Origin: Malacoraja senta
Lineage: Eukaryota
Assembly (NCBI GenBank): GCA_038087875.1
Contig: JAXLNO010006171.1
Coordinates: forward strand, 1-55,754
Length of the DNA: 55,754 bases
Reading direction: 5' to 3'
Shown piece by piece: positions 2,340 through 50,737 of this stretch. The notes under the pieces are model-generated. The model did not search any database. It saw only the letters and a list, made by a program, of their open reading frames with translations, and was not told the DNA's origin. The position numbers were made by a program, and so were the translations under genes. Every line of letters starts with the position of its first letter. Positions within the stretch are counted from its first letter, which is position 1.

Positions 2340-4013
2340 TTTTGGGAGTTGTCGGGGCAGATGACGCTTCCAGTCCGAGCGGCGGACAGGTCGGTGTCTC
2401 CAATCCTAGCGATGAGACTCGATTGGCGAGACCAATGTCGGGCAGAGCTATAGTGATGGGTGACTCCATTGTCCGAGATGCGGACAGGAGATTCTGTGGC
2501 GGCAGGCGAGACTCGAGAATGGTCTGTTGCCTCTCTGGTGCCAGGGTTCAAGATATCACGAACCGACTTCAGAGAGAAGGTGAACAGCCGGCAGTAGTTG
2601 TGCATGTGGGCACATACGACGTAGGGAAGAAGAGGAAGGAGTTTAGACAGTTAGGAAGAAGACTGAAAAGCAGTACTTCTAGGGTGGTTATCTCTGGATT
2701 GCTTCCAGTACCTTGTGCTAGTGGGGGCAGGAACAGGGGGATAGGGGATCTGAATGTGTGGCTGAGGGGCTGGTGCAGGAGCAAGGATTTAGATTTATAG
2801 ACCACTGGGATCTCTTCTGGGGTAGGGGTGACCTGTACAAAAGGGACGGGTTACACCTTAACTGGAGGGGGACCAACATTTTGACAGGCAGGTTTGCTAG
2901 TGCTACACGTGTGGGTTTAAACTAAATAGTGGAGGGGAAGGATTGACAAATTGGGAATATAAAGATGGAGTTAAAGGGGAAGTGAGTACAGGAAAAGTTA
3001 CAAAAGATTCCCGAATTAATGGGAAGGTAAGTTCGACATGGGATAAGAGAGTAAGGTCAGGGCCAACAGTGTGAGAGGGGAGGTGAATACCGAAGTCAAA
3101 GTGTTGTATATGAATGCGTGCAGTATAAGAAATAAAGTGGATATTCAGGTTGGTACTGGACCCCAAGAAAGGGCGTTTGTGCAGTGCCTCTGTGATGGAT
3201 TCTTAGAGCAGCTTGTACTGGAGCCTACCAGAGAGAAGGCAATTCTGGATTTAGTGTTGTGTAATGAACCAAATTTGATAAGGAACTCGAGGTAAAGGAG
3301 CCATTAGGAGGTAGTGACAATAATATGATAAGTTTTAATCTACAATTTGAAGGGAGAAGGGTAAATCAGAGGTGTCAGTTTTACAGTTGAACAAAGGGGA
3401 CTATGGAGCCATGATGGAGGAGCTAGCCAAAGTTGACTGGAAAGATACCCTAGCAGGGATGACAGTGGAACAACAATGGCAGGTATTTCTGGGAATAATA
3501 CAGAAGGTGCAGGATCTGTTCATTCCAAAGAGGAAGAAAGATTCCAAGGGGAGTAAGGGGCGACTGTGGCTGACAAGGGATGTCGGGGACAGTATAAAAA
3601 TAAAAGAAAAGATGTGTAACATGGGAAAGATGAGAAGAAAGCCAGAGATTGGGTAACCTTTAAAGAGCAACAGAAGATAACTCAAAAGGCAATACGGGGA
3701 GAAAAGATGAGGCACGAAGGTAAGCTAGCCAAGAATATAAAGGAGACAGGTACTTTGATCTGTCTTCACCAAAGTGGACACAAACAATCTCCCTGATGTA
3801 CTAGTGGCCAGAGGATCTGGAGTAGACGGAGGAACTGAAGGAAATGCACATAAGGCAGGAAATGGTGTTAGGTAGACTGATGGGACTGAAGGCTGATAAA
3901 TCCCCAGGGCCTGATGGTTTGCATCCCAGGGTACTTAAGGAGGTGGCTCTGGAAATCGTGGACGCATTGGTGATAATTTTCCAATGTTCTATATATTCAG
4001 GATCAGTTCCTGT
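2340..4013 (+). mobile_element. Degenerate, internally deleted CR1 LINE (ORF1 SGNH esterase plus ORF2 endonuclease/linker fragments)
   Basis: GDSIVR...VVVHVGT...VVISGLLPVP (esterase ORF1); LYMNACSIRNK, EPTREKAILDLVLCNE and DKSPGPDGLHPRVLKEV (CR1 ORF2). Confidence 0.88.
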
Positions 4014-5400: not shown

Positions 5401-6728
5401 GCCATCAGCATTGTGAGGAATGTGGATTGCTCTCAGGATAGCTGAGGTGAATTCCTGTTGTACCTTCAAGGTGGTGTAAAGCTGAGCTCTATTTGGAAAA
5501 GACTACATAGCTCATCCAGACTTCACAGTGTCTACATTTTAATTTAGTGTTTTAATTTGTTTTGTTAGCAATGTTATTTTTGTAATTAATTGAAGGCTTA
5601 TTAAATGGTCTTTTTAAACAGCATTAAAGAGTTCTACACAGGGTTCAGGTCCTGCATTTGAAGGGATAAGTGCTCCATTATACACAATATTTTTCCATGA
5701 TTGCTTTGAAGTTGACTGGCTGGTTCCAATAACTTATTAGCTGAGAATAAAGCTCACATTGTAATTAAAATTATGGGCAGAAAAGCTGTCTTTTTACACG
5801 AGTAGCAGAACCTGTTCCTGCTTTCTCAACCAAATAGGGATTTAGAAAGTCCATAAAATATAGCGGATATTATTTTCTGATTCATTTAAATAAAGTGGAT
5901 ATTTTTAGTGCTTTCTGATATGTATCTGAAAAGTCATGGCACCTATTACGCATCTATGTTTTAAATGAGTGCATTTTGCAAAAAAAATCTTGATCTGTAC
6001 TTGAAGAACCCTGGTAACTAAGGCTGTGAGCCAAGTGCTGGAGGGTAGGATAAGGCTGGGTGGCTCTTTAACAAGAACAGGTACTGTGGGGTGAATGGCC
6101 TCCTTGTAAGATTATTTTTCCTCCTGTTATTGCCTGTACACAATTGGCCATGTGTATAAGAAATGTTTAATACCTTACACTTAACAGCCAGTCAGGGAAA
6201 TGAGCATGCATTCAATATAAATTTGGAAGAAAATTTACTTGGTAAATGGACCTTGTGTTTTTTAAATCCCTGTAGTGTATTCCGGTGCATAACTTGTAGA
6301 TTTGTTAGCATGTTAGAATTTGATTGTTTTAATTTTCCAGTCTAATGGACAGTATTCCGTCAGGTTTCTGATCTAGGCATTAAGGATGTGAGCTGATTCA
6401 TCGTTTGCTGCAGAGTACATGGCCTTGCCACTCCTTATTGGGTTTCTGGTTAAGAATCATTTTTTCTCCTCTCCCCTCCCCCCAAAAGAATATCAGAATG
6501 CTTGTTAATGGCAGATGACTTGATGATAATCATGTGTCTAATTAAAGGTCACATCATCCCCATATAGATTTGTTAAATGGAAGCCACTTTCTAGTCATGC
6601 ATTTCTAATCAAGTTGGACTCTTTCTGTGACTGAATGCCTGTTCCCACATTTAATCTTTGTTTTCAGCCGTTAAACTTGAAAATTATATCTTGGGAAAGG
6701 TTATCAAGCACACTTCATATTTTCCCTT

Positions 6729-8166
6729 TTTCAGGGCACCATAATGTTTGGGACACAGCAATGTCATGTAAATGAAAGTAGTCATGTTTAGTATTTTGTT
6801 GCATATCCTCTGCATGCAATGACTGCTTGAAGTATGCGATTCATGGACATCACCATTGGGTGCTTTCTCTGGTGATGCTCTGCCAGGCCTGTATTGCAGC
6901 CATCTTTAGCTTATGCTTGTTTCGGGGGCTAGTCCCCTGCAGTTTTCTCTTCAGCATATAAAAGACATGCTCAGTTGGGTTCAGATCAGGTGATTGACTT
7001 GGCCACTCAAGAATTGACCATTTTTTAGCTTTGAAAAACTCCTTTGTTGCTTTAGCAGCACATTTGGGATCATTGTCTTGCTGTAGAATGAACCGCTGGC
7101 CAATGAGTTTTGAGGCATTTGTTTGAACTTGAGCAGATAGGATGTGTCTATACACTTCAGAATCCATTATGCTACTACCATCAGCAGTTGTATCATCAAT
7201 GAAGATAAGTGAGTCAGTACCTTCAGCAGCCATACATGCCCAGGCCATAACACCCCCACCACCGTCTTTCACAGATGAGGTGGCATGCTTGAGATCTTGG
7301 GCAGTTCCTTCTCTCCTCCATACTTTGCTCTTGCCATCACTCTGATACAAGTTAATCTTCGTCTCATCTGTCCACAAGACCTTTTTTCCAGAACTGTGGT
7401 TGATCTTTTAAGTACTTCTTGGCAAACTGTAACCCGGCCATCCTATTTTTGCAGCTAACCAGTGGTTTGCATCTTGCAGTGTAGCCTCAGTATTTCTGTT
7501 CATGAAGTCTTCAGCGGACAGTGGTCATTGACAAATCCACACCTGACTCCTGTAGAGTGTTTCTGATGTGTCGGACAGGTGTTTGGTGATTTTTATTTAT
7601 TATAGAGAGAATTCTGTCATCAGCTGTGAAGGTTTTCCTTGGCCTGCCAGTCCCTTTGCGATTAGTAAGCTCTTTCTTCTTAATGATGTTCCAAACAGTT
7701 AATTTTGGTAAGCCTAAGGTTTGGCTGATGTCTCTAACAGTTTTATTCTTGTTTCTCAGTCTCATAATGGCTTCTTTGACTTTCATTGGCACAACTTTGG
7801 TCCTCATGATAAACAGCGATAAAAGTTTCCAAAGGTGATGGAAAGACTGGAGGAAAGACGAGGTGCTGAGAGCTCTCTTATACCTGCATTAAGGAGGCAA
7901 TTAAACACACCTGAGCAATTACAAACGCATGTGAAGCCATGTGTCCCAAACATTTTGGTGCCCTGAAATGGGGGGGACTATGTATAAACACAGCTGTGAT
8001 TTCTACATGGTGAAACCAAAATGTATAAAAATGCCCTTTAATATAATCTGACAATGTGCACTTTAACCACATGTGATTTTTTTTCGATTACAAATCTCAA
8101 ATTATGAAGTACAGAGGCAAATAAATAAATGATGGATCTTTGTCCCAAACATTATGGAGGGCACTG
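6729..8166 (-). mobile_element. Tc1 (DD34E) DNA transposon, one TIR partly deleted, frameshifted transposase
   Basis: HTH plus GRPRKT (7511-7807); WTDETK, QQDNDPK and SPDLNPTE with 34 residues between D and E (6850-7377); end ...ggagggcactg|TA at 8166. Confidence 0.92.
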
Positions 8167-8168
8167 TA

Positions 8169-8670: not shown

Positions 8671-8910
8671 GTTTTGTTGCTCAGGATCAGCACATGCCTG
8701 TAGATGCACATGCACTCTCTGAAGACAATGTGCACACGGTATGACTGCATGCATACATATACTCTGCATACTAAAAATATGCATGGAGTCTTAACCTTAA
8801 TCTTTTCACACAAGTCAGCTCCTCTACCCAAGACGTTGCCTGCAGTTGAATCAGTTGTTTTCATCTTTGCTGTATTTTGTCCATCTTGTACCTGTTCCAT
8901 TTGCCTTTGG

Positions 8911-9759
8911 CCACTAGGCAGCCTGGTAGCCTCTGCCTACAATCTGTCTGTTTTTCCATCTTTTTTAAATTTTTAGTCTGTTTAAAAAGTATGTGGTGGA
9001 GTTTCCTAGTATTTTTATGTGGGGGGAGGTGGGTAGGGTAAGGGGGAAACTTTCCCAGTCACTTCCTGGCAAGGATGCGACTATTCTCCAAGTTGCGTCC
9101 TCGCCCCCCCCTGCCCCCCTCGCGGCCTACCAACTGGATTGGCGGGCCTTTCCTGCCGGAGACTTCCTGCCTCCAGAGCTTCAGCGGCGGCGCAGCACTG
9201 ATTAACCGCAGAGCGAGCGATGCCTTACCTGGATTGCCGTTTGGAGCTCCGGAGTGTTGGGCCTGCTGCTTCAACATCGTGGAGCTGTGCTTTGAGGAAC
9301 TCCCAGCCGCGGGCGGTGCTGACTTCAACATAGTGGAGTCCTGGGATCCCTTTGCCGAGGGCAGCCAGCGTGAATCTCTGCCCAGCTCGGCCTGTGGACT
9401 TCGGGAGCCGAGGTCTCCCCGTAAGAAGTGGCCGATTCGGAAGTCCAAGCCGTTGAGGGTTTGCACCCTTCCGACGTCGGAGTTCCATCATCCCGGCCTG
9501 AACATCGGGCCACCGTTGCGGCGACTGCGGGGGCTCGGGATGCCTCGACCACGGGTGAACATCAAAGAACATCAAAGAGGAGGATGACTGAACTTTGGTG
9601 CCTTCTTTGATTCTGCTGTGTGGGGATGTTTATGTTAAAAACTATCGCGTTCTGTGTTATTTTTATTATTCGTATGGCTGTATGGTGACCCCAAATTTCA
9701 CTGTACCAATTGGTACATGTGACAATAAATGTCTCTTGTCTCTCTTGTCTCTTGTCTTG
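8911..9759 (+). mobile_element. Long CpG-rich non-autonomous retroposon with Rex1-like 3' tail
   Basis: Ends aaatttcactgtacc-aatt-ggtacatgtgacaataaa(tgtctct)n, resembling the Rex1 tail at 20415-20473; colinear at both ends with 36714-37465. Confidence 0.72.
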
Positions 9760-18630: not shown

Positions 18631-18737
18631 CTTGACCTTCAATACTCAAGGCGTCTCCTTGTTACTCCCAATTGCACTTCTGAAACCAAGGGCGGGAAGT
18701 TGTCTCATTTTGCACTTGGACAGTTACTGGGCATTCA

Positions 18738-20473
18738 TGTGTGGTGACGCAGAGGTCTATAAGAAGTCCAGAGATATGATCTTGACAAGGCCATCAAAAA
18801 GGCCAAAAGGGACTTTCAAGCTGGAGGATGAGGCGGATGTTCGGCTACTATGGCAGGGTTTGAATGCCATCACCTCCTACAAGGTGAAATCAGGAGGCAA
18901 CTCAAGCGACAGTGAAGCATCAATCCCTGATGAGTTCAATGCGTTCAACGCATGCTTTGATAGGAAGAACACTGATGTTCCTTCCCAAGCCCCCATACGC
19001 CCTGATGGTATTACAGTCACAGTCACAGAGGCCAAAGTCAGAATATCCTTTTGGGGAGTGAACCCTCGGAAAGCGTCTGGACGTGATGGTATACCCGGTC
19101 GAGTTCTTAAAACCTGTGCAGACCAACTGGCTGGAGTTTTTGCGGACATTTTCAACCTTTCGTTACTGAGGTCTGAGTTTTCCCACCTGCTTTAAGAGGG
19201 CATTAATAACAGGTGCCCAAGAAGAGTAAGGTGATGTGCCTCAATGATTATCGACCAGTGGCACTATGTCCGTGGTGATGAAGTGCTTTGAGAGGTTGGT
19301 TATGGTGCATATTAACTCCAACCTCAACAAGAACCTCGACCCACTATAGTTTGCCTACCATCACAACAGGTCAACGGAGGATGTCATCTCACTGGCTCTC
19401 CACTCTGCACTGGACCACTTGGCCAATAAAAACACTTACGTCAGGCTGTTGTTTATAGACTATAGCTCGGCATTCAATACCATCATCCCCTCTAGTTGGT
19501 TACCAAGCTCATGGAACTGGGTCACTGCGCATCCCTCTGCAATTGGATCCTCGACTTCCTCATCCACAGATCACAGTCTGTCGAATTGGCAGAAACAGTT
19601 CTTCCTCATTAACAATCAGCTGAAGGTTGCGTGCTCAGCCCCCTGCTCCACTCATTCTATACTCATGACTACAGCCAGACCCAGTGCGAACTCCATCTTC
19701 AAGTTCGCCGACGACACCACCGCTGTTGGACGAATTAAAGATGGGGATGAGTCAGAGTACAGAAGTGAGATCAACCGATTGACCAAATGGTGCACACGAA
19801 TGCAATTATAAAGAAAGCAAATCAACGGCTCTACTTCCTGAGAAGATTACGCGGATTTTGTATGACAGAGAGGATTCTCTTGAACTTCTACGGGTGTACA
19901 GTAGAAAGCATATTGACTGGTTGCATCACGGCCTTGGTTCAGCAACTTGAATGCCCAAGAGCGAATAAGACTGCAAAAAGTTGTGAACACTGCCCAGTCC
20001 ATTACCGGCTCTGATCCCACCATCGATGGGATTTACCAGAATCGCTGCCTCAAAAAGGCAGCCAGTATCATCAGAGACCCACACCACCCTGGCCACACAC
20101 TCATTTCACTCCTGCCATCGGGAAAAGGGTATAGGAGCCTGAAAACTGTAACGCCCAGGTTCAGGAACAGCTTCTTCCCTACAGCCATCAGACTATTAAA
20201 CACTACAACCTCAAATAAGCTCTGAACTACAATAGATTATTATTGTTATTATTGCACTACTATTGTTTGTTTTTTGTGTGTATGTATGTGTGCGTGTGTA
20301 TGTATATATATCTATATATGTAAGTATGCATATACACACTGAACTTTTTCTCTCTCGTATATTATATTGTTTACAGTGTATTATGTTTACATATTCTGTT
20401 GAGCTGCAGCAAGTAAGAATTTCGTTGTTCTATCTGGGACATATGACAATAAAACACTCTTGACTGTTGACTC
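18738..20473 (+). mobile_element. Rex1/Babar LINE, 5'-truncated and internally deleted, intact 3' tail
   Basis: [76 protein letters not shown]; tail aagaatttcgttgttc...atgacaataaaacactcttgactgttgact. Confidence 0.9.
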
Positions 20474-20612
20474 AAGTTTCCCTGAGAGCTGACTGTAGCC
20501 CCTGCTACTTATTACCTCTTGCAATCTATCGGCAACGTGTGATATTCATCATTTTTCACATGTGGACAGCTGATCATTTCCAGCTGTCTTCACTGTCACT
20601 TCTAAAACAGAC

Positions 20613-24965: not shown

Positions 24966-26195
24966 TCTATACACTTATAAAACTCTCATCTTGTCCTCCT
25001 CCGGTTTGCATTGTTTTTAAATTTGCGCAAAACGGTACCCGATAGCGCTACGATTTTTCGCCACCTTACTCACCATTCTCCTGTGCTGCAAGTGCATCGT
25101 TTTGTTCCGATTGGTGAAATATTACAAAAGCTATTAATCTTCTCCTGTCATTCGCCGGGATGGCGACGCCCCTTCCGGCACCCGCTGTCAATCACCAGCG
25201 GTGAGAATAAAGCTGAAGGAGCGGAGTGAGCAGAGTGTGGGCAGGGGCTGTATTCGCGGGGCGGGCTGGGGCTGTGTTTGCGGGCGGGGGCTGTGTTCGC
25301 GGGCGGGCTGGGGCTGTGTTCACGTGCGGGCGGGGGCTGTGTTCGTGGGCTGGCGGGGGCTGTGTTCGCGGGCTGGTGACCACCATGACGACCCGGGATC
25401 CGCTGAGTGCAGCCGTGGCCGGGAGCCTCTGAGTGCGACAGGAGCCAGGGACGGGAGCTACTGAGTGAGTCCGGAGCCGGTCCTGGAGCCGATGAGTATG
25501 GTTGGAGCCGGAGCCGCTGAGCCCACACACCACCCTCCCCCCACTACACACACCCCTCCCCCTCCCACATAGATCCCCCTCCCCAACCCCCACAACCTCC
25601 CCTCCCCCACCCGCACAATCCCCCCTCCCCCACAAACCCTCCACCTCCACCACCCCCCTCCCCACACCCCCCTTCTCCCACACCCCCGTCCTCTATACCC
25701 CCGTCCCCCACACCCCCCTTCTCCCACACCCCCGTCCTCTATACCCCCGTCCCCCACACCCCCCGTCCCCCACACCCCCCGTCCCCCACACCCCCCGTCC
25801 CCCACACCCCCCGTCCCCCACACCGCCCCTCCCCCACACCGCCCCTCCCCCACACCTCCCCTCCCCCACACCTCCCCTCTCCCACACCTCACCTCCCCCA
25901 CACCTCCCCTCCCCTCCCCCACACCTACCCACACCACACCCCCCGTCCCCCACACCCTCCCATCCCCCACACCCTCCCATCCCCCACACACCCCCGTCCT
26001 TCACACCGCCCCTCCCCCACACCCCAGCCCCCGACAGGCCCCGCCTGAAGCCGTCCCCCTCCCCTGGCTGCAGGATGCTCCCGCTGTTGTGTTGGGGGAA
26101 CAGGTGAGTGGTGGAATATTGCATTGGGGAATGGGTTGCATTGGGGGACCAGGCCTCCCATGTGACTGGGACCCAACGGGTCCCACATAGTCTAG
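24966..26195 (+). mobile_element. Complete non-autonomous Helitron (1230 bp) with internal GC-rich minisatellites
   Basis: A|TC start at 24966; sub-terminal hairpin gggaccc-aac-gggtccc (26168-26184); CTAG|T end at 26195; no TSD. Internal ggggctgtgttcgcgggc repeats (25243-25375) and C-rich ~16-17-bp repeats (25525-26030). Confidence 0.88.
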
Positions 26196-28117: not shown

Positions 28118-28963
28118 AATGCAAATGCAAGATCAGCATTTCAAAAAATCTTCAGTGAAGAATTTCAATGGTATTAATGAACTTAAAGCATTTTATTTGT
28201 TTAAAGCATTGCAACATTAAAAGTTTGATGTTAGACTTCAAACAGCTGACAGTATGGTATGTTTATAAATAAATATCGTCTGGTCAAATTCTGAGGCTCA
28301 GTTATTTTAAATATGTAAGGGTTGCTTCACATTGTTCTGATGTGGGCAAGTATACATTGCTAAACCATCACAATTAAGCTGTGGTCTCAATTTTGGTTGG
28401 GTGAAAACATTTGCTCTTTGTGCTATTGTTCTTGGAATATTTCTCATATGTTCAGTCAGCTCCTCTAATGATGAGCAGACATACTAACAGCTCCAGATTT
28501 GATAGCTGGCCTGCATTGTATTTGATGAATTCAGTTGAATAATATTGGACCACACATTTGTCATCATTAACCCTGCAGGATAAAATATAGCAAGGTTCAT
28601 AATTATGATTAGGCCTTAAATAAAGCAATATAATGTATAGTCTCTTGGCAATCCATGGTGGAGGTGCACAAATATGAATTAAGGTTGAAGCTGGACGAAG
28701 CTGAGCTCTCGTCTTCCCTTTTCTCGGATTTTAGGAATTTAGTTAGGAATTGAACCAAGGACCAGCATTTCGGGTGAATGTGAAGTATTCCTTTGCAGGG
28801 GCGGGAATCACTATCAAAACAATTTCTTGGTGGTCGCAAGCGCATGCGCACACACGCGAGGCTTCGGCCGTGGACCCTGTGGACGATAACATCGGTAACT
28901 GACCTGGTTGGTGACCGACTCCGAACTCTAGCAACAGCAGCTTCGTCCGCCCCGAATCGTGGG

Positions 28964-29161
28964 GCTTCAATTGGCCCGTTTGCAGGGCCTTTCATCGCCT
29001 GGCGTGGCTTAAAACCGGCCGCGGGATCTTCCACCGCCCGGCGGGGGCTTCAACATCGGGAGCCTCGACGCAGCAATTTGACCGCGGGCGATGGAAGATC
29101 CCGTGGCCGATTTTAAGCTGCGCCGGGCGATGAAAGGCCCTGCGAACGGGCCGATTCAAGC
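28964..29161. repeat. GC-rich inverted repeat, ~75-bp arms with ~44-bp spacer
   Basis: Arm 28969-29040 matches the reverse complement of 29085-29156, differing mainly by transitions. Confidence 0.9.
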
Positions 29162-29909
29162 TCAGCTCTATGATCTTTGCTCCACCAGGACGTCTCCCTC
29201 CTCCAATCACCGCGCTCTATCCTCATCCCCACCCCCCTTACTTCCGCCTCTGACCGACACCTCCCTCCTCCAATCATCGCGCTGAATCATCATGTCCCGT
29301 CCCCCCCCTCCCACTGCCTGCTGACCGACGTCTCTCTCGTCCAATCAGCGCCCTCGATCATCAGTCTCACCCCCACTGTCTCGCGGAAAGCGGAGATTTT
29401 TAATAGTTTTTTTCACTGAATTTCAAAATCTGGATTACAAAACATGGGGGGTTTGTCCCCCACCTCTCAAAACATGTAGGGGACACCCCTTCCCCCCGTC
29501 CCACTCGTGATTTCCGTCCACGGTCCTTTGTACTATTTGAAAATGTAAAGGGATTCCTCAGCAAATTGAATGTGTGTTTTTAAATCTTGCTTTCTAGAAA
29601 CCAATAAATTTGGTGGTTCATTTTATTTGCTCTTCAGACGATCTTTAAAAATAATGATACTGTCCAGGCAATACGATCGAAAGATTAACTTGTGAAGAAA
29701 TCTGAGATATTCTTGAACAGAGGTACAGTATAACCAAGATTGTATGCTTTTTACAAAAAAAGTTTCCCAAGAGAATTTACAAATAGAAGGGTGGGAATCT
29801 AAACCATCTCTTGATTAATGAAGAGAAGGCGCAGAGTGCTGGAGCAGCTCAGCGGGTTAGGGCAGCATCTCAGGAGAACAAGGATGGGTGACGTAGTGGG
29901 TCAGGATCC

Positions 29910-35676: not shown

Positions 35677-36203
35677 AAGCAGAAAAAAATTAAGAAGCAG
35701 AGAAAAAAAATGGCCTTAAATTTAAACAGTCTATATAGAGGGGTGGGGAGGGGTGGGGGGGTGGGGAGGGTGGGTGGGAGGACTTGTCCCTTAACTGCTA
35801 CTTTAACACAGGTGGTTATTAACATTGCCGACCAAGTTCTATTGACACTTGGGCAATGATACTCCGTTAAACAATGTAGTATAGATCCTTCAGTGTTTTT
35901 AGCATGCATTAACAAAAATAAAATAATTGCTTTGAAAAGACCTTTGAGTTTGATAATCCTTGTGTGAAAAATAACTTTGTTATTTCGAATTTGAAACACT
36001 CTAGCCTCTAGCCCCCATCCCCCATCCCACATTGACACCATATAATATGATTTTTTTCAATAACAAGTTTTTTTGGGAATGCAACTCACATGATAGCTGA
36101 GCTACGTATACTGTATTTGTGCTCATAATCTGATCTCAGCAATTATGAAACCACACTGTCAGTGACTGATTTGCAGAATGCCTCCACTTGGTCTGCAAAG
36201 ATA

Positions 36204-38316
36204 CAGTGCCCTCCATAATGTTTGGGACAGACCTATAATTTATTTATTTGCCTCTGTACTTCACAATTTGAGATTTTGTAATAGAAAAAATCATGTGGTT
36301 AAAGTGCACATTTTAATAAAGGCTATTTTTATACATTTTGGTTTCACCATGTAGAAATTACAGCTGTGTTTATACATAGTCCCCCCATTTCAGGGCACCA
36401 TAATGTTTGGAACACAGCAATGTCTTGTAAATGAAAGTAGTCCTTTTTAGTATTATGTTGCATATCCTTTGCATGCAAGGATTGCATGCTTGAAGTCTGC
36501 GATTCATGGACATCACCGGTTGCTGGGTTTCTCTGGTGATGCTCTGCCAGGCCTGCCATTTGTTTGAACTTGAGCAGATAGGATGTGTCTATACACTTCA
36601 GAATTCATTATGCTACTACCATCAGCAGTTGTATCATCAATGAAGATAAGTGAGCCAGTACCTTCAGCAGCCATACATGCCCAGGCCATAACACTCCACC
36701 ACCGTGTTTCACATGATCATGATCATAATTATAATCATACTCTACTAATGTATGTTTTGCAACAATTTGGTTTGCCATACAGTCATACTACTAGAAAGCA
36801 ACAGACCACAAAATACATTTTAACATAAACATCCACCACAGTGACTCCTCCACATTCCTCACTGTGATGGAAGGCGGAAAAAAAAAGTTCAATCTCTTCC
36901 CTTCATTATTCTCCTGAGGTCGGGGGCCTCGAGCCTTCCGTTGACGGGACGATCTTGACTCCCGTAGCCGGCGGTGGGCATCCTCGTCGGGGCGATCAAG
37001 CTCCCGCATCGGGGGGGTCTCGGCTCCCCCGTGCCAGGCGATTGACCCCGTGTCGGGGCTTTTCGAACCCTCTGCGTTGTTGGAGCTCCCGACTCGGCCT
37101 CTCCCGAGACTGCGAGCTCTTGATGTTAAATGTCCGCAGGTTGGAGCATCGATCTCAGGCAAGGGATTGGCTCCGTTGTTAAGTCCACACCCCGCGGTGG
37201 GGCTCGAAGTCAGTCCCGAGCAAGGCTTCCAGCTCCATGATGTTAGGCTGCAGAGCGACTGGAGATACGACCCGGAAAACAATCGCATCTCCGGCAAGGT
37301 AAGAGATTGAAAAATGTTTCCCCCATATCCCTCCCCTACCCCCACCCCCCCCCATAAAACAAACCAGAGAACATTAACACAAACTTTTAAAACACACTAA
37401 AAATAATTTAAAAAAGTACGAAATGACAGACCGTTGGCGAGGTAGCCATCGCGGGGCCACCTGGTGATGAGGTGGTATGCTTTGGATCTTGGGCAGTTCC
37501 TTCTCTCTTCCATACTTTGCTCTTGCCATCACTCTGATATCAGTTAATCTTCGTCTCATCTGTGACGAGAACTGTGGTTGCTCTTTTAAGTACTTCTTGG
37601 CAAACTGTAACCCGGCAATCCTATTTTTGCGGCTAACCAGTGGTTTGCATCTTGCAGTGCAGCCTCTGTATTTCTATTCATGAAGTCTTCCGCAGACAGT
37701 GGTCATTGACAAATCCACACCTGACTCCTGAAGAGTGTTTCTGATGTATCGGACAGGTGTTTGGTGATTTTTCTTTATTATAGAGAGAATTCTGTCATCA
37801 GCTGTGAAGGTTTTCCTTGGCCTGCCAGTCCCTTTGCGATTAGTAAGCTCTTTCTTCTTAATGATGTTCCAAACGGTTGATTTTGGTAAGCCTAAGGTTT
37901 GGCTGATGTCTCTAACAGTTTTATTCTTGTTTCTCAGTCACATAATGGCTTATTTGACTTTCATTGGCACAACTTTGGTGCTCATGTTGATAAACAGCAA
38001 TACAAGTTTCCAAAGGTGATGGAAAGACTGGAGGAAAGACTAGGTGCTGAGAGCTGCATTAAGGAGGCAATTAAACATACCTGAGCAATTACAAATACCT
38101 GTGAAGCCATGTGCATTGAAATGGGGGGACTATGTATAAACACAGCTGTAATTTCTACATGGTGAAACCAAAATGTATAAAAATGGCCTTTAATAAAATC
38201 TGACAATGTTCACTTTAACTACATGTTATTTTTTCTATTACAAATCTCAAATTGTGGAGTACAGAGGCAAATAAATAAATGATGGGTCTTTGTCCCAAAC
38301 ATTATGGAGGGCACTG
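36204..38316 (-). mobile_element. Tc1 element with both ~200-bp TIRs (IR/DR-like), internal deletion, interrupted by a CpG-rich retroposon
   Basis: TA|cagtgccctccataatgtttgggaca ... tgtcccaaacattatggagggcactg|TA; highly similar to 6729-8166. Confidence 0.92.
36714..37465 (-). mobile_element. Long CpG-rich non-autonomous retroposon (related to 8911-9759) inserted in Tc1
   Basis: Empty site tttcaca|gatgagg is visible in the other Tc1 copy; head and 3' region colinear with 8911-9759; (atgatc/atgatt)-type tail; no TSD. Confidence 0.8.
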
Positions 38317-39409
38317 TAAGTTCAAATTTGAATTGCTTATCACTATAATTCTGCACTCCCACTTTGTTCTCTATTTTTTGCCTCGTACATGTTTCCAATG
38401 AAGCTCGTCAGAAGCTTGAGCAACAGTCTCCCAGGTGCTGATACGGCACATCATTCTTCCAGACTTTATGCTAAATTCTATATTTTCAGATTATCTAATA
38501 TCTCATCCTAGAATTTTACATTTCCAATATTAAATGTTTTCCTAATCTTACCATTCCATTGCCCTATTAAAACTCACCCAGACGTAACTTCACTGATCTC
38601 TACCGCTCATTTTCAATCAACACCATATTGCCATTTGCCTGTCTCTTGAAAATATTCTGTTGAATTTTCCTTCTATATTCCCCGTCCCCTCCCCAGTTTA
38701 CAGATCGTGAAACATTTCTTAACCTAATTATCTGAACGTGAATTTTTTTTTTGTCTGCTCTTACCCAGCTATGTTAGTTTCACCACTTTTCAAATTTTCT
38801 GTGATGCAGTTTTTTGCTGTTCTTCATAGCCCATAACCACATCTGCTGAATAGGCTGTAATAAGTATGCTCTCTTCATCAACCACGATAGCCGTAAGGCT
38901 TATAAGACGTACATCTGGAGCCTATTTCTCAAGGAAATAGCATGGATCAAATTGGTCCAAAATGTTAAATGTGTACTAATGCTTAACAGGATATGAAGCT
39001 GTATGGTTCATACTAGTCGTATTTTTTTACCAGTTGCTGTGGGAAAGGGAAAATAAGCTTAGGCTGTAATTGTGTGGACACTTTGTCCAATAGGATTATC
39101 AAGTTGGTGCCATAGTGATAAAAGAGAATCGAATGGCAAATTGCATATTACAAACAAGGGGGAAAGATTAGATCAGAACATAAAATTATTAGCAGGAATA
39201 AGGCATTCAATTCTTAAATCCAGCCTTGCTATACGGTAAGATTATGGATAGTCTGTTACCACACTTCCTATTTTCCTGCACTTAAACTGTATCTCTTGTT
39301 TCCCACAATAAATTAAAATTGCATATCTGTCTTGAATATACTGCTCTCTTGGATAGAGAATTGCAAAGATTTACCATTCTCTGAGTGGAGAACTTTATGA
39401 CCTCAACCA

Positions 39410-45360: not shown

Positions 45361-46474
45361 CACCAATGAAAAGATACAGCTTACAGTGCCGCAATACTTT
45401 GTGGCCCGAACTAGAAGAGAGCACATAACTGAAAATGTTGGAGCTGAAGGAGTTTAACGAGAAGTGGATACAGACAGCATAAATTTGGATGATCTCCATT
45501 TTGTGGAGAATAGAACAAGTCGACAGGATGTAATGAATGTTTCAGCAGCAGATTTGCTGAGGCAGGAATTAAGTTAAGTGATAGGTGAAATATGTGGTTT
45601 GATGTTGATCTTTATGTCAAAAATGACAATCTGTTTTGACCACCGACTGTGCTCGGAAGGAGGCCTGTTATGGGAAATCAAGTTTGGTGGAAATTGTATA
45701 TTCCATATTTTCTTATGACACGTGGCCGATTATTCGATACTAGCGTTCAGAGCATTCTCATTAGTCCCTTTCCCCCACTTATTTACCTGTAACTTATTCT
45801 CCCTTGCATGCTCATCAATTGAATTTGATTTTCCTGACACCTGCCTATACTAGCATCCGTTTACATGTAGTTAATTTTGTGTCTGCTATCCAATATAGAT
45901 AGCAGTCTGGCAATGTAGAAGGTATTGTTAGGGGAACCCCAGAATTATTTCATGTCTCTTTGCCTTATGAACACGATGAAATGTTGGTTCAATGCACGTA
46001 GAAAAGGGAGGAATATCGAACGATTTTGGGTAAGATAGTCGATACTTTGAGATTAGGGGGCTCTAACTCAAGATCTGGTTAGTTGGGAGATCATTAGTAT
46101 AGAATGCTACAGTATGTCAGTCACAATAGGCTCACTCCATTTGGATTCTGCACACTAATTTAAGCAAAAAGTGCACCGGAGGAGTGATTTTCAAATTGCA
46201 GATGATATGCCACAGGCAGAATTTGGTTTTATCAGCAAACCAGAGCTCTATCCTGTGCTTTGTGCTTTAAAAACTAAACTTTTGTTTCTTTTGTTATTTG
46301 GCTGAGTTTGATCTTATTGTGATGCAGTGAGACAACATCCTGGTTATAATGCATGCACATCACTGCTGAGGGTCACCACACCAGTGGATGCCCATGCTGC
46401 CCATCAGTTTATGCAAATGGTGAATGTAGGTTAAAAGCAGAATGCTAGAAATTCAGCAGTTAAAGCAGGGGAGC

Positions 46475-47039
46475 CGCGTGCGCGGCGGGAGTGTCCCGGG
46501 GAACCGCGCGGGCCCGATCCACCTGCCGAACAACCGCGCCACCGACAACCAGAACGACGAGCGAAGACCGGAACTCGCCCCGGTAGGCCTGACGCCCCAC
46601 AAGCCTCCCAGGAGATTGCGATGAAGCCGGGCGGCGAGGCCTGTCTGGGCCAATGGGAGCCTCGGCGGCAGCGGTGAGAGTGACGGGGGAGGGAAAGACA
46701 ATGGGGACCCAGTGTGGGGGGGGACCGCCGTGAAGAACAATGGGGCCCGGCGTGGGGGGCCCGCCATGAGGGATGGTGGGAGAACAAAGGGGGACCCGAT
46801 GTGGGGGTGGGGGGGCACTCTAGTTTAGAAACCACTGCACAGGGGATAAGCCTGCGTTCGTTTGTTTGTTTGTTCATTTGTTCCGGTGAAGGCACTGTGC
46901 ACAAAGCAGCCAGCCAACAGTTGCTTGTCTTTTTCTTTTTGTTTTCATTTTTAATTTCAAGTTTTTGCGTACCTTGTCTGTTGCGCCAATTTCCCTCCGG
47001 GGATGAATAAAGTTTTATCGTATCGTAGCATAAGTTGAT
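46475..47039 (+). mobile_element. CpG-rich non-autonomous retroposon with Rex1-like tail, flanked by a 35-bp direct duplication
   Basis: Tail aatttccctccggggatgaataaagttt(tatcg)n; internal acaatggggaccc..gtgggggg repeats x3; gaatgctagaaattcagcagttaaagcaggggagc at 46440-46474 and 47040-47074. Confidence 0.7.
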
Positions 47040-47409
47040 GAATGCTAGAAATTCAGCAGTTAAAGCAGGGGAGCAGGTTGGTGCAGTGACTGATGGTTTG
47101 CACAGACTTGCACAATTGTTCCATATGTCATTGCTGAAGTGGGATGGGAAGCAGATGTACGCTTATACTGAGGTTTTATTCCCCATTGGCAGCTGCTGAT
47201 TGTATGCAGTCACAAACATTGAGTATAAGTGAATACATGTCCTGTGATAAGTGAGTTGGAGAGAGAAGAATGGATTCACAAGAAATCATGACAATTCATA
47301 ATGACATAGCTGCCAACAAAGGGTCATAAGTGAAACCTCTGCACCGTACTTAGTTACCCAATACCTAAGCCGAACAGGTGTTTAAGAGCAACATGGTTCA
47401 TGGCAAATA

Positions 47410-48340: not shown

Positions 48341-50125
48341 GGGGAATTGCATTACATGGGTTCTAACTTTATAGTTCAGAACTCCTTCAAGTAGTTTACA
48401 ATAAAAGTCAGTTACCTATATCATTGTGATCCTAAATTGATTCTATTAAATGCAGCTATTAAAGTAGCATAACATTTTGTCTTTGCATCAGTTCTTCTAA
48501 AGACTAAGTTGGCCTTTCCCCTGGAGGTTTAGGTTTAACTTGCCTTTTATATAATTGTCTATCAAGTTTGGTTATTTGTTGCACACAAAGCAAATCTAAA
48601 TGTGCGTGTGCCATTGCTTTAAATAGAAACAGAAAATGATGGAAACACTCAGCGGATCAGGCAGCATCCATGAAAATAAATGTCGGAAATGAGATTAGTG
48701 GCTTTTAGATGGCTAATGATTTTGAAGGTTATTGAACCAAGACAGGTAGATGTGTTAAGTTGTTTATCAGCCTTAATCTGAAGAGACTCCTGGCTGGACG
48801 AACAATTGCATAGAAATTGCTTACATTTAAAGTTAAACCACCAAAGAAAAGACTTGCAAACTCTTTTTAAGAACTGATGCAATCTAGACAAGGCTTTAGG
48901 CTACTTTAATGTTGTTGTTTGAGTCTGAACTGCTTTTCATGATCTTATGCTACTACTTCACCTTTGAGATGACACTCAGCCCATAGCACCAAGATCATTT
49001 AGTTCAACTTTTTAAATATCATCCATTTCTGCCCAAACCCTTAAATTGTTCCTTTTGCTACAACCAATTTTTGCTGTGCCAGTTATCCTAGCCGTTCTCC
49101 CACCGCTACTCGACATAGGTTTGTGCTACATAAAACTCTACCCTGTTTTAACTGGCTTCAAGTTTCACTCTACTTAAACCCCTCACATTATCTCATTCGC
49201 AATTAAATGTGTGGACGAGGACGCTCACTCTGATGGCAAATCAGTTTTAAGATTGTTCCTCTTATTCTCAGCTTTCTTCTTTACCACCCTATCCTGCCAG
49301 AAACATCCTTTGTTTTCTGTGGTTCTCCATTTGTGGCCTCGAATGATTTCTTTTTAGATTCTACCCAAGTGGTTCACCAGCAGCTTCACCTGCCATGGCT
49401 CAAAGCTCTTGAATTTTCTTCCATTGAAACTCCTCTCCTGCTTGAAAATTCTCCTTAAATTTTACTTTGTGACTAAACTTTCAGTTTTCTGTTCTTTGAT
49501 CTCTTTCTCTGCTTAACATCAAAAGTGAATTCTGGAAACCGTCACTCTGTCAGCCAACATCCACGGATGAATGGAGTAGACTAAGGTCAGCATTCCTGGA
49601 AGGGATGTGAAAACGACGAAAATAAAATAAAAAAAACTGCAGATCTGTTGTGTGATAATGTTGCTGTTATGTATAATGGGATATTCCATTATATGTACTA
49701 TGAGCAATGACTACTGGTATTTATAAAGTGTGGAATGCAACCCACTTCATCTCTGAAAATTTAGTTTTTGAATACTATAAAATTGATGTATGCAAGAGTG
49801 GTTAAAGATTCATTGATGAAACCTTTAAGCTGTCATAGTTCAGATGCAATATTGATTAGATGTCACAGTAAGCTGCTTAAATAGCAGTGACTTTTTTCTG
49901 TCCTTCGACCTGAATTTGAGAATAAGCTGTCAGGGTAGTGAGAAGTGTTCATTCTCAGGTTTATAGTGCTACCCACTCATTTTGGACAAACCCTTAAATA
50001 GCGAAAAGATCAATTGCTTGAATATGAACTTCTATTTCTCTCTCCACAGATGCTAACTGACCAGCTACATATTTCCTGTTTGGATTGGGAGAGTTGGCTA
50101 ATAAATAATATTTGTCTTTTTCCAG

Positions 50126-50419
50126 TGTGCTCGTTACAGGCGCTTATACACTTCACCAAGGAGCCCTATTCCCAGGATGCTTTGCACGGGCGCAGTGCAA
50201 TTCTTCGTTGTGAAGTTCAAATTCCAACAAATATAGTGTTTGAGTGGCTCCTAAATGGCAAGCCTGTAAGGACGTCTGAGCGGCGCTTCATTGAAGGCAG
50301 CAATCTACAGTTCACGGCAGTAGATCGGAGGGAGGACAGTGGCGACTTTCAGTGCATCGCTCGGAATACAGTCACTAGCGAGGAGGCTCAAACGGCAGTG
50401 GCATCTTTCAATATCAAAT
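50126..50419 (+). CDS. PTK7: PTK7 (inactive tyrosine-protein kinase 7) internal coding exon encoding Ig-like domain 1 (exon 2 equivalent)
   Basis: Translation ALIHFTKEPYSQDALHGRSAILRCEV...FEWLLNG...RRFIEGSNLQFTAVDRREDSGDFQCIARNTVTSEEAQTAVASFNIK closely matches my recollection of vertebrate PTK7 Ig1 (human ...SQDALQGRRALLRCEV...DSGTFQCVARDDVTGEEARSANASFNIKW). Acceptor tttgtctttttccag ends at 50125; donor gtgagt starts at 50420; 294 nt, phase 1-1 as is typical for Ig exons. The rest of ORF 50014..50712 is intronic read-through. Confidence 0.93.
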
Positions 50420-50545
50420 GTGAGTACCACTACTTTCTGAATAGAAATGTCCCATGCCTTAATGGGCTCCAAGTTCACCTACAGAGCTGCCAAGGATCAG
50501 AACAGCAGCTTCAGATACCAAATTGTAGTCAGAAAGAGTTATACA

Positions 50546-50737
50546 TCTATCTCTATAATTATAAAACTCTGATCATGGATGTGTGTGGATGTTTGTGCGT
50601 GTGTGTATGTGTGTATATAATCACATCTTCTCGAAAAAACGATGTGCTAACAATAAAATGTTTACATATTCCAGTAGAGATTTATCCCGTCAACTCCGAA
50701 ATCGTCATCTGAAAAAGTCATGCATTATTTCTCGAGT
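50546..50737 (+). mobile_element. Helitron 5' portion (interrupted by CR1)
   Basis: A|TCtatctctataattataaaactctgatc followed by a (GT)n-like tract; same 5' signature as 24966, 2156 and 1599. Confidence 0.65.

Follow-up and report, generated by a model that had tools for sequence, protein, structure and literature searches.

The window, a stretch of 55,754 nucleotides of contig JAXLNO010006171.1 from Malacoraja senta, holds two CpG-rich repeats, here called E1 and E2 (Table 1), and it raises the question of what kind of retroposon they are. An initial annotation had proposed a possibly undescribed class of retroposons that is diversified, structured, non-coding and dependent on Rex1 LINEs. The latter traits were upheld by our analysis, but we regard the elements as a further form of the LINE derivatives already known to lack an ORF and to have two LINE ends rather than as a new SINE class, because their heads match the 5' starts of Rex1 LINEs. 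Both elements, their coordinates and their hairpin strings were present as annotated, with the start of E1 shifted from 8911 to about 8908. It is probable that E1 and E2 sit within a long intron, because the window also contains an immunoglobulin-domain exon (50002-50712), which we take to be PTK7-like, and a CpG island (25000-26100) that carries a C-rich minisatellite of 16-nt units.

Table 1 Location of the elements, their parts and the related repeats in the window
Feature	Position	Strand	Remark
E1, full-length subfamily 1 copy	8908..9759	+	Relatives and consensus of 30 loci
E1 head	8908..8941	+	Subfamily consensus matches 5' start of Rex1 lineage B; about 10 nt missing here
E1 G-tract, four G runs	9016..9050	+	G-quadruplex pattern, predicted only
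E1 hairpin H1	9068..9105	+	Folding and covariation
Internal unit CTTCAACATcGTGGAG, two copies, in CpG-rich core of E1	9269..9338	+	
E1 hairpin H2 remnant	9600..9628	+	16-nt deletion in E1
E1 tail: stem-loop H3, AATAAA, (TCTTG)n repeat	9698..9759	+	Rex1 A/C type
Rex1-type LINE, lineage A, 5'-truncated, putative partner type, outside the elements	18713..20475	+	
hAT-like MITE (presumed label) with about 260 nt of subfamily 3 core (28829-29085)	28796..29522	+	
Tc1-like transposon, host split by E2	36202..38318	.	DDE_3 match
E2, full-length subfamily 2 copy inside Tc1, no TSD	36714..37465	-	
E2 tail, partly deleted, (ATGAT)n-like repeat	36714..36768	-	Rex1 lineage B type
E2 hairpin H2	36833..36870	-	Folding z -2.8
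E2 hairpin H1	37261..37292	-	Folding and covariation
E2 G-tract	37316..37356	-	G-quadruplex pattern, predicted only
E2 head	37433..37465	-	Matches 5' start of Rex1 lineage B; opens with CTCF-like motif
Separate CpG-/G-rich non-coding retroposon family, (TATCG)n tail, not a member	46475..47039	+	

Two window repeats belong to one abundant superfamily

We confirmed that the two repeats are members of one abundant superfamily and represent two subfamilies of non-coding elements of 750-870 nt. Searches of the 1.94-Gb genome recovered dispersed, full-length relatives of both at 81-88% identity (best 40 of 9606 first-look candidates scored for E1, best 40 of 7681 for E2). Thirty loci each of subfamilies 1 and 2 shared a sharp 5' end, and their 3' finish consisted of AATAAA and a microsatellite of variable length. 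Profile searches with these subfamilies of loci retrieved for different purposes yielded 37 additional pieces, from which subfamilies 3, 4 and 6 were sampled at 20 loci per subfamily. Subfamily 4 is young (92-97% identity), and identities were 86-89% in subfamily 3, many loci of which have common flanks (13 distinct), and 81-87% in subfamily 6. The five consensuses are 753-870 nt long and 69-86% identical in aligned columns. Within the window, 8946-9089 pairs with 37431-37274 at 72%. The CpG-rich middles, annotated as diverging, have indeed diverged but are homologous, as the consensuses of subfamilies 1 and 2 align end to end (score 347 vs 30 +/- 4 in 100 shuffles).

A library search of 173 LINE-anchored loci (799 kb) gave 34 matches. 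We kept 23, 8 of them longer than 600 bp, and excluded 11 short ones that, from their length and position, were probably hits of a single library row to Rex1 tails. This suggests a copy number of 10^4-10^5 and about 1% of DNA, figures that come from a biased sample and a library partly made from the same matches. In each of seventeen public sequencing runs, under eight organism labels, 27-37% of the sampled words of E1 were present, and one run covered the element deeply, with flanks at about 30. Contigs from three runs that we guessed to be RNA span the element, repeat contigs being uninformative on a discrete transcript or its start. We found no description of the family among the open papers listed by literature searches. 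An uncurated Dfam or Repbase entry may well exist. Taken together, these elements form a real, abundant and recently active family.

Two other window repeats had been linked to E1 and E2. The internal relationship annotated at 28830-29110 held for about 260 nt in common with subfamily 3 (score 225 vs 30 +/- 4 in 40 shuffles), but this piece lies inside an element with terminal inverted repeats (TIRs), which is not a member. This MITE has 14-bp TIRs and 2711 first-look candidates at 85-95% identity; of 5 copies with both ends found, 3 are flanked by 8-bp repeats that differ at 0-2 positions. It has picked up a piece of the core from subfamily 3. Part of the captured piece is repeated as an inverted repeat. 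The head-like motif assigned to 46475-47039 was not borne out as a head: it lies near the 3' end, and the profiles of subfamilies 1 and 2 both miss the element. That repeat is flanked by an exact 35-bp direct repeat (whole 46440-47074) and has its own family of 2093 candidates, for which no partner LINE was found.

A structured core without coding capacity

The core spans 500-630 nt and comprises a G-tract, hairpin H1, a CpG-rich repeated unit and hairpin H2. A G-quadruplex pattern is predicted in the G-tract of 21/27, 10/20, 6/15 and 16/17 copies per subfamily, and of 2/11 in subfamily 6. The unit around AACATCGnGGAG occurs in 2-4 copies per consensus (shuffled mean 0.04).

H1 folds at -22.3 kcal/mol (z -5.6) on the sense strand of E1 and at -19.3 (z -2.1) on the antisense strand, and at -19.1 (z -2.6) and -13.0 (z -1.2), respectively, in E2. 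Its annotated preference for the element-sense strand is thus seen in both energy and z, and the A:T/G:C swaps described at the stem base are present. The 8-nt RTTYTCCR loop is found in E1 and E2, but across subfamilies the loop is merely pyrimidine-rich and 7-9 nt long. In 27 rows from about 12 lineages, 87.8% of H1 cells were paired (79.4% shuffled, 36-46% slid), 10/14 pairs showed two-sided change (a count reached by 30/500 shuffles) and the covariation score was 0.44 vs 0.29 (reached by 0/500); these figures and those for H2 and H3 are not probabilities, because the rows are mutually related and picked by hand and atypical copies were omitted. RNAalifold recovered the H1 stem unaided. For the tail hairpin H3 (24 rows, 4 from Rex1), two-sided change was seen in 8/10 pairs (48/500 shuffles) with a score of 0.72 vs 0.30. 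H2, which the initial annotation did not contain, was 94.9% paired in 23 rows, with two-sided change in just 2/12 pairs (419/500 shuffles). Left out were four mislocated H1 rows and broken or atypical H2 and H3 copies, including E1 H2, E2 H3 (a hairpin short by about 11 nt) and the tails of subfamily 6.

The elements have no protein-coding capacity. The longest ATG ORFs in the five consensuses (124, 210, 30, 76 and 40 aa) are not common between subfamilies, and a Pfam search of the open frames of E1 and E2 found nothing, as expected from an annotation that saw no credible ORF. The core gave no match to full-length Rex1 A, B or D with blastn or nhmmer --max, the best blastn alignment covering 18 nt on the opposite strand (E 0.015). 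Against these lineages, the elements are not composed solely of LINE 5' and 3' parts. The initial annotation had regarded a full-length match to a LINE UTR as decisive against it; for Rex1 A, B and D we found none.

Rex1 lineages of the same genome

We sampled four Rex1 lineages (A-D); over the RT-containing part, protein identity among A, B and D is about 50-58%. Rex1 A and D carry an AP endonuclease, RT and PF09004, the last of which we take as a mark of Rex1, in one ORF. A single APE-RT ORF and a conserved 3' UTR with an oligonucleotide repeat were found, the features given for Rex1/Babar in the accessible text of PMC6274825 and PMC13343379. The Rex1 label draws on domain features and these two sources, not on an RT tree. 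The same text of PMC13343379 places rays among the species with the most Rex1.

In the sampled Rex1 LINEs, no more than about 50 nt precede the ORF, and the 3' UTR measures about 150-350 nt. Rex1-A starts with CCAAGATGGCGCC or part of it in 24/30 loci, Rex1-D with AAGATGGCGGCGGCG in 7 of 8 loci (the 7 with the start listed), and Rex1-B with a short GCT-rich run, in which its starts differ, followed by TGGCGCCGACGATGGCGGCC. At some full-length Rex1-A 5' ends, short tandem repeats of CCAAGATGGCGCC were seen (L195, L201 and L207, near 1000-1040). Rex1-D (L377-L384) is very young, with many copies 99% identical and intact ORFs of more than 1000 aa. 5' truncation was seen in most of the twenty Rex1-A loci selected through their C-terminus and in most of the twenty Rex1-B loci, and 0/12 Rex1-C loci were full-length, all being truncated.

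Several other arrangements were observed among the LINE loci. In L205 (853-1044), a subfamily 2 5' fragment lies immediately before a full-length Rex1-A copy, touching its start; insertion of Rex1 into the element is the simplest explanation. Loci L094 (4300-7350) and L104 (4200-7250) share a chimera that combines a 3' segment, presumably zinc-knuckle ORF1-like and Tx1-like, with the RT and tail of a Rex1 element. An endonuclease family search returned mostly L1-sized ORFs, and the cores match those 30 loci at one inserted fragment only. These loci (L111-L140) include a very young LINE family, L1-like by size, dozens of whose copies keep a 1271-aa ORF intact.

Both ends resemble Rex1 ends

The annotated Rex1-like tails were substantiated by alignment to lineages A-D, which gave a matching stem-loop and microsatellite, and the elements thus end as an autonomous LINE with a simple-repeat tail does. 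Among 48 comparisons run, tails of subfamilies 1, 3 and 4 matched Rex1-A and C (0-1/300 shuffles) and those of subfamilies 2 and 6 matched Rex1-B (1/300 and 2/300); the tail of locus L017 matched Rex1-D (0/1000). The subfamily 1 tail folds as the Rex1-A tail does, with 4-bp and 6-bp stems, one bulged base and a 4-nt loop. One core type occurs with tails of different Rex1 lineages. A family member with hairpin H2 and a tail of the 46475-47039 type was seen in L288 (near 2950-3100), a hint of additional tail exchange.

At the 5' end, the likeness to an autonomous LINE consists of a short match within the first 20-80 nt, about 20 nt plus T-rich sequence. The score against the Rex1-B 5' start was reached by 0/1000 shuffles for subfamilies 1 and 2, 1/1000 for subfamily 6 and 2/1000 for subfamily 3; for the subfamily 4 head it was reached by 85/1000 and is not significant. 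The first 14 nt of subfamily 3 are the same as the Rex1-D start (1/1000). A common head motif was present in 22/30 subfamily 1, 21/30 subfamily 2 and 22/29 Rex1-B loci, compared with 0/30 in each set of upstream controls. At the peptide level, a short head ORF compared with the Rex1-B leader was not significant in 4/5 cases (24-845/1000 shuffles). In subfamily 6, the head is similar as well to the first part of the Rex1-B 3' UTR (0/300; remaining subfamilies 6-52/300).

The first 15 nt of subfamily 2 (L031-L060) contain a CTCF-core-like motif, relative to an assumed consensus, exactly in 4/30 loci and with at most one mismatch in 13/30 (controls 0/30). As a start common to the whole family this motif was rejected, with 1/30, 0/13, 0/20 and 1/8 in subfamilies 1, 3, 4 and 6. 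In subfamily 2 it occupies the position of the YY1 motif in subfamily 3; CAAGATGGC is described in the accessible text of PMC5381506 as the YY1 site that determines where transcription of mammalian L1 begins.

Tests for a pol III head

Neither a tRNA, 7SL or 5S head nor an internal pol III promoter was found. ARAGORN reported 0 tRNA genes in 9 loci, and Rfam gave nothing at gathering score in 6 loci, with two chance-level matches (E 0.08 and 0.4). Relative to assumed box consensuses, every A- or B-box alignment within the initial 250 nt of the two element consensuses examined has at least two mismatches, in line with the initial annotation; the subfamily 2 consensus has a single short B-box match without mismatch at position 310. 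Runs of at least six T, which would stop pol III transcription, lie within the first 120 nt of the elements. The accessible text of SINEBase defines SINEs by pol III and a length under about 700 bp (elsewhere in the same paper, under 1 kb) and gives family lengths of 75-662 nt (PMC3531059), and the consensuses are longer. By the pol III definition the superfamily is probably not a SINE, and by the sampled lineages it is not a pure bipartite derivative.

Insertion sites and age

E2 interrupts Tc1, and a sister Tc1 copy (about 6716-8168) holds the empty site, which places the insertion after the Tc1 copy, as had been annotated. Comparison with this site (7273|7274) revealed neither duplication nor deletion, and 0/16 young copies of subfamily 4 had a TSD of at least 5 nt. 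Short flank matches averaged 5.9 vs 4.9 in subfamily 1, with at least 8 nt in 2/18, and showed no excess in subfamily 2, with 0/19 at that length. A regular TSD was accordingly rejected, a slight excess being present in subfamily 1 alone and none in 2 or 4. E1 diverges from its 30-locus consensus by 5.2% at non-CpG and 16.5% at CpG sites. The two Tc1 copies, host and sister, differ by 2.5-4.8%, and E2 differs from the subfamily 2 consensus by 9% at non-CpG sites. Because E2 postdates its Tc1 host yet is this far from the consensus, its source was probably a minor variant outside the scored matches.

Discussion

We consider it likely, with a probability of roughly 0.72, that the superfamily is no classical SINE but derives from LINEs, lacks an ORF, has a foreign core, depends on Rex1 and is likely transcribed by pol II; its transcription and mobilisation we infer from sequence. 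The GATGGC/CAAGATGGCG start would then serve as an internal YY1-type pol II initiator and the CpG-rich core as a promoter island. Rex1 protein may bind the 3' stem-loop and prime reverse transcription via the terminal repeat. The core (G-tract, H1 and H2) may have been kept for RNA survival or for reaching Rex1 protein at the ribosome, and subfamily clades may have switched partner lineage through an exchange of ends. Trees of the 5' and 3' parts of 10 representatives were broadly congruent, so such exchange would be rare at best. Both resolve three groups, with a B-type head and A/C-type tails in group I, B-type ends in group II and D-type ends in some members of group III. At least one exchange seems likely, because the age of the partner lineages far exceeds that of the 15-30% split between subfamilies. 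A bolder version, which we regard as possible with the odds against it, would make the structured RNA cassette itself the parasite, moved among at least three Rex1 lineages while swapping promoter end and tail, with one subfamily having scattered thousands of CTCF-consensus sites.

The origin of the core bears most directly on a different reading, in which the elements are internal-deletion derivatives of an unsampled Rex1 lineage and the core is a long 5' leader or 3' UTR of that lineage. Lineage C has the tails nearest to those of subfamilies 1 and 4, and its truncated copies (12/12) did not show the 5' end, the subfamily 1 core is weakly like the Rex1-A leader in 1/4 comparisons (42 vs 27 +/- 3, maximum 37), and the subfamily 6 head has the 3' UTR likeness described above. 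However, full-length A, B and D contain no match to the core, the sampled Rex1 leaders and 3' UTRs are short, and one core is combined with tails of several lineages, and we therefore think this derivation unlikely.

The shortness of the head match would also suit a SINE-like element whose head came from a small RNA or pol III promoter, with only the tail borrowed; the Rex1 5' likeness could reflect convergence on one promoter motif. SINEs with Rex1 (RSg-1) tails are known (PMC3747384, accessible text), and SINEs with GC-rich heads of unknown origin have been reported (PMC7245038, accessible text). Such an origin is rendered quite improbable by the match of two clades to two different Rex1 starts, combined in both cases with the tail of that lineage, and by the missing A/B boxes, the negative tRNA and Rfam searches, the early T runs and a length beyond the SINEBase range. 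The sharp 5' end, the AATAAA near the 3' end, the CpG richness and the LTR-like length recall solo LTRs or another repeat formed other than by TPRT, but the 3' end is a variable-length microsatellite common to Rex1 rather than a fixed end, a fixed 4-6 bp TSD is absent (0/16 young copies; clean empty site), and a flank comparison of 30 loci found no paired copies around a common interior among the listed matches. That origin is very improbable.

If the elements are indeed Rex1-dependent LINE derivatives with a foreign core, Rex1 would join the few LINE clades with ORF-less pol II-type passengers, and the combination of LINE start, foreign structured core and LINE end stands between bipartite LINE derivatives and SINEs. 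Natural tail-partner pairs together with young intact Rex1 in one genome would allow a direct test of the rules by which tails are stringently recognised. In these fish, regulation and repeat annotation could also be affected by a family that makes up about 1% of the sampled DNA, is rich in CpG and starts with YY1- or CTCF-like motifs.

Comparison with known systems

In its probable way of working, the superfamily is like SVA of hominoids, a composite, non-coding element with a CpG-rich repeated middle and a G-rich tract that is transcribed by pol II and mobilised by a LINE in trans; no sequence in common is implied. Unlike SVA, which has L1 as its partner, a poly(A) tail and TSDs, the superfamily has a Rex1-type tail and no regular TSD. 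The SINEs SlmI, HpaI, OS-SINE1 and SINE2-5_NV likewise owe their 3' stem-loop and repeat to a Rex1-type LINE, among which we count RSg-1. In the accessible text of PMC3747384 their heads are of tRNA or 5S type and hold pol III promoters, whereas the superfamily lacks both and is longer. HE1 (a V-SINE with partner HER1), SacSINE1 and SINEX-1_CM are, like the superfamily, non-autonomous retroposons of cartilaginous fish. They have tRNA heads and CR1-type partners according to the same text (PMC3747384), and the superfamily, with no tRNA head and a partner not of CR1 type, is set apart from them by description, not by sequence.

The ORF-less bipartite LINE derivatives share most with the superfamily in their design: no ORF, LINE 5' and 3' ends, no small-RNA head and likely pol II transcription, which Kojima 2018 expects for them (PMC5786205). 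Examples are RIME from Ingi, NARTc, the Vingi-1_EE derivatives, Bov-A, RTESINE1/2 and the R2 derivatives, and the accessible part of that paper lists such elements for RTE, Ingi, Vingi and R2 only (PMC5786205). In contrast to these, the superfamily has Rex1 as its partner, most of its length is a core absent from the sampled partners, and its clades bear the ends of different partner lineages.
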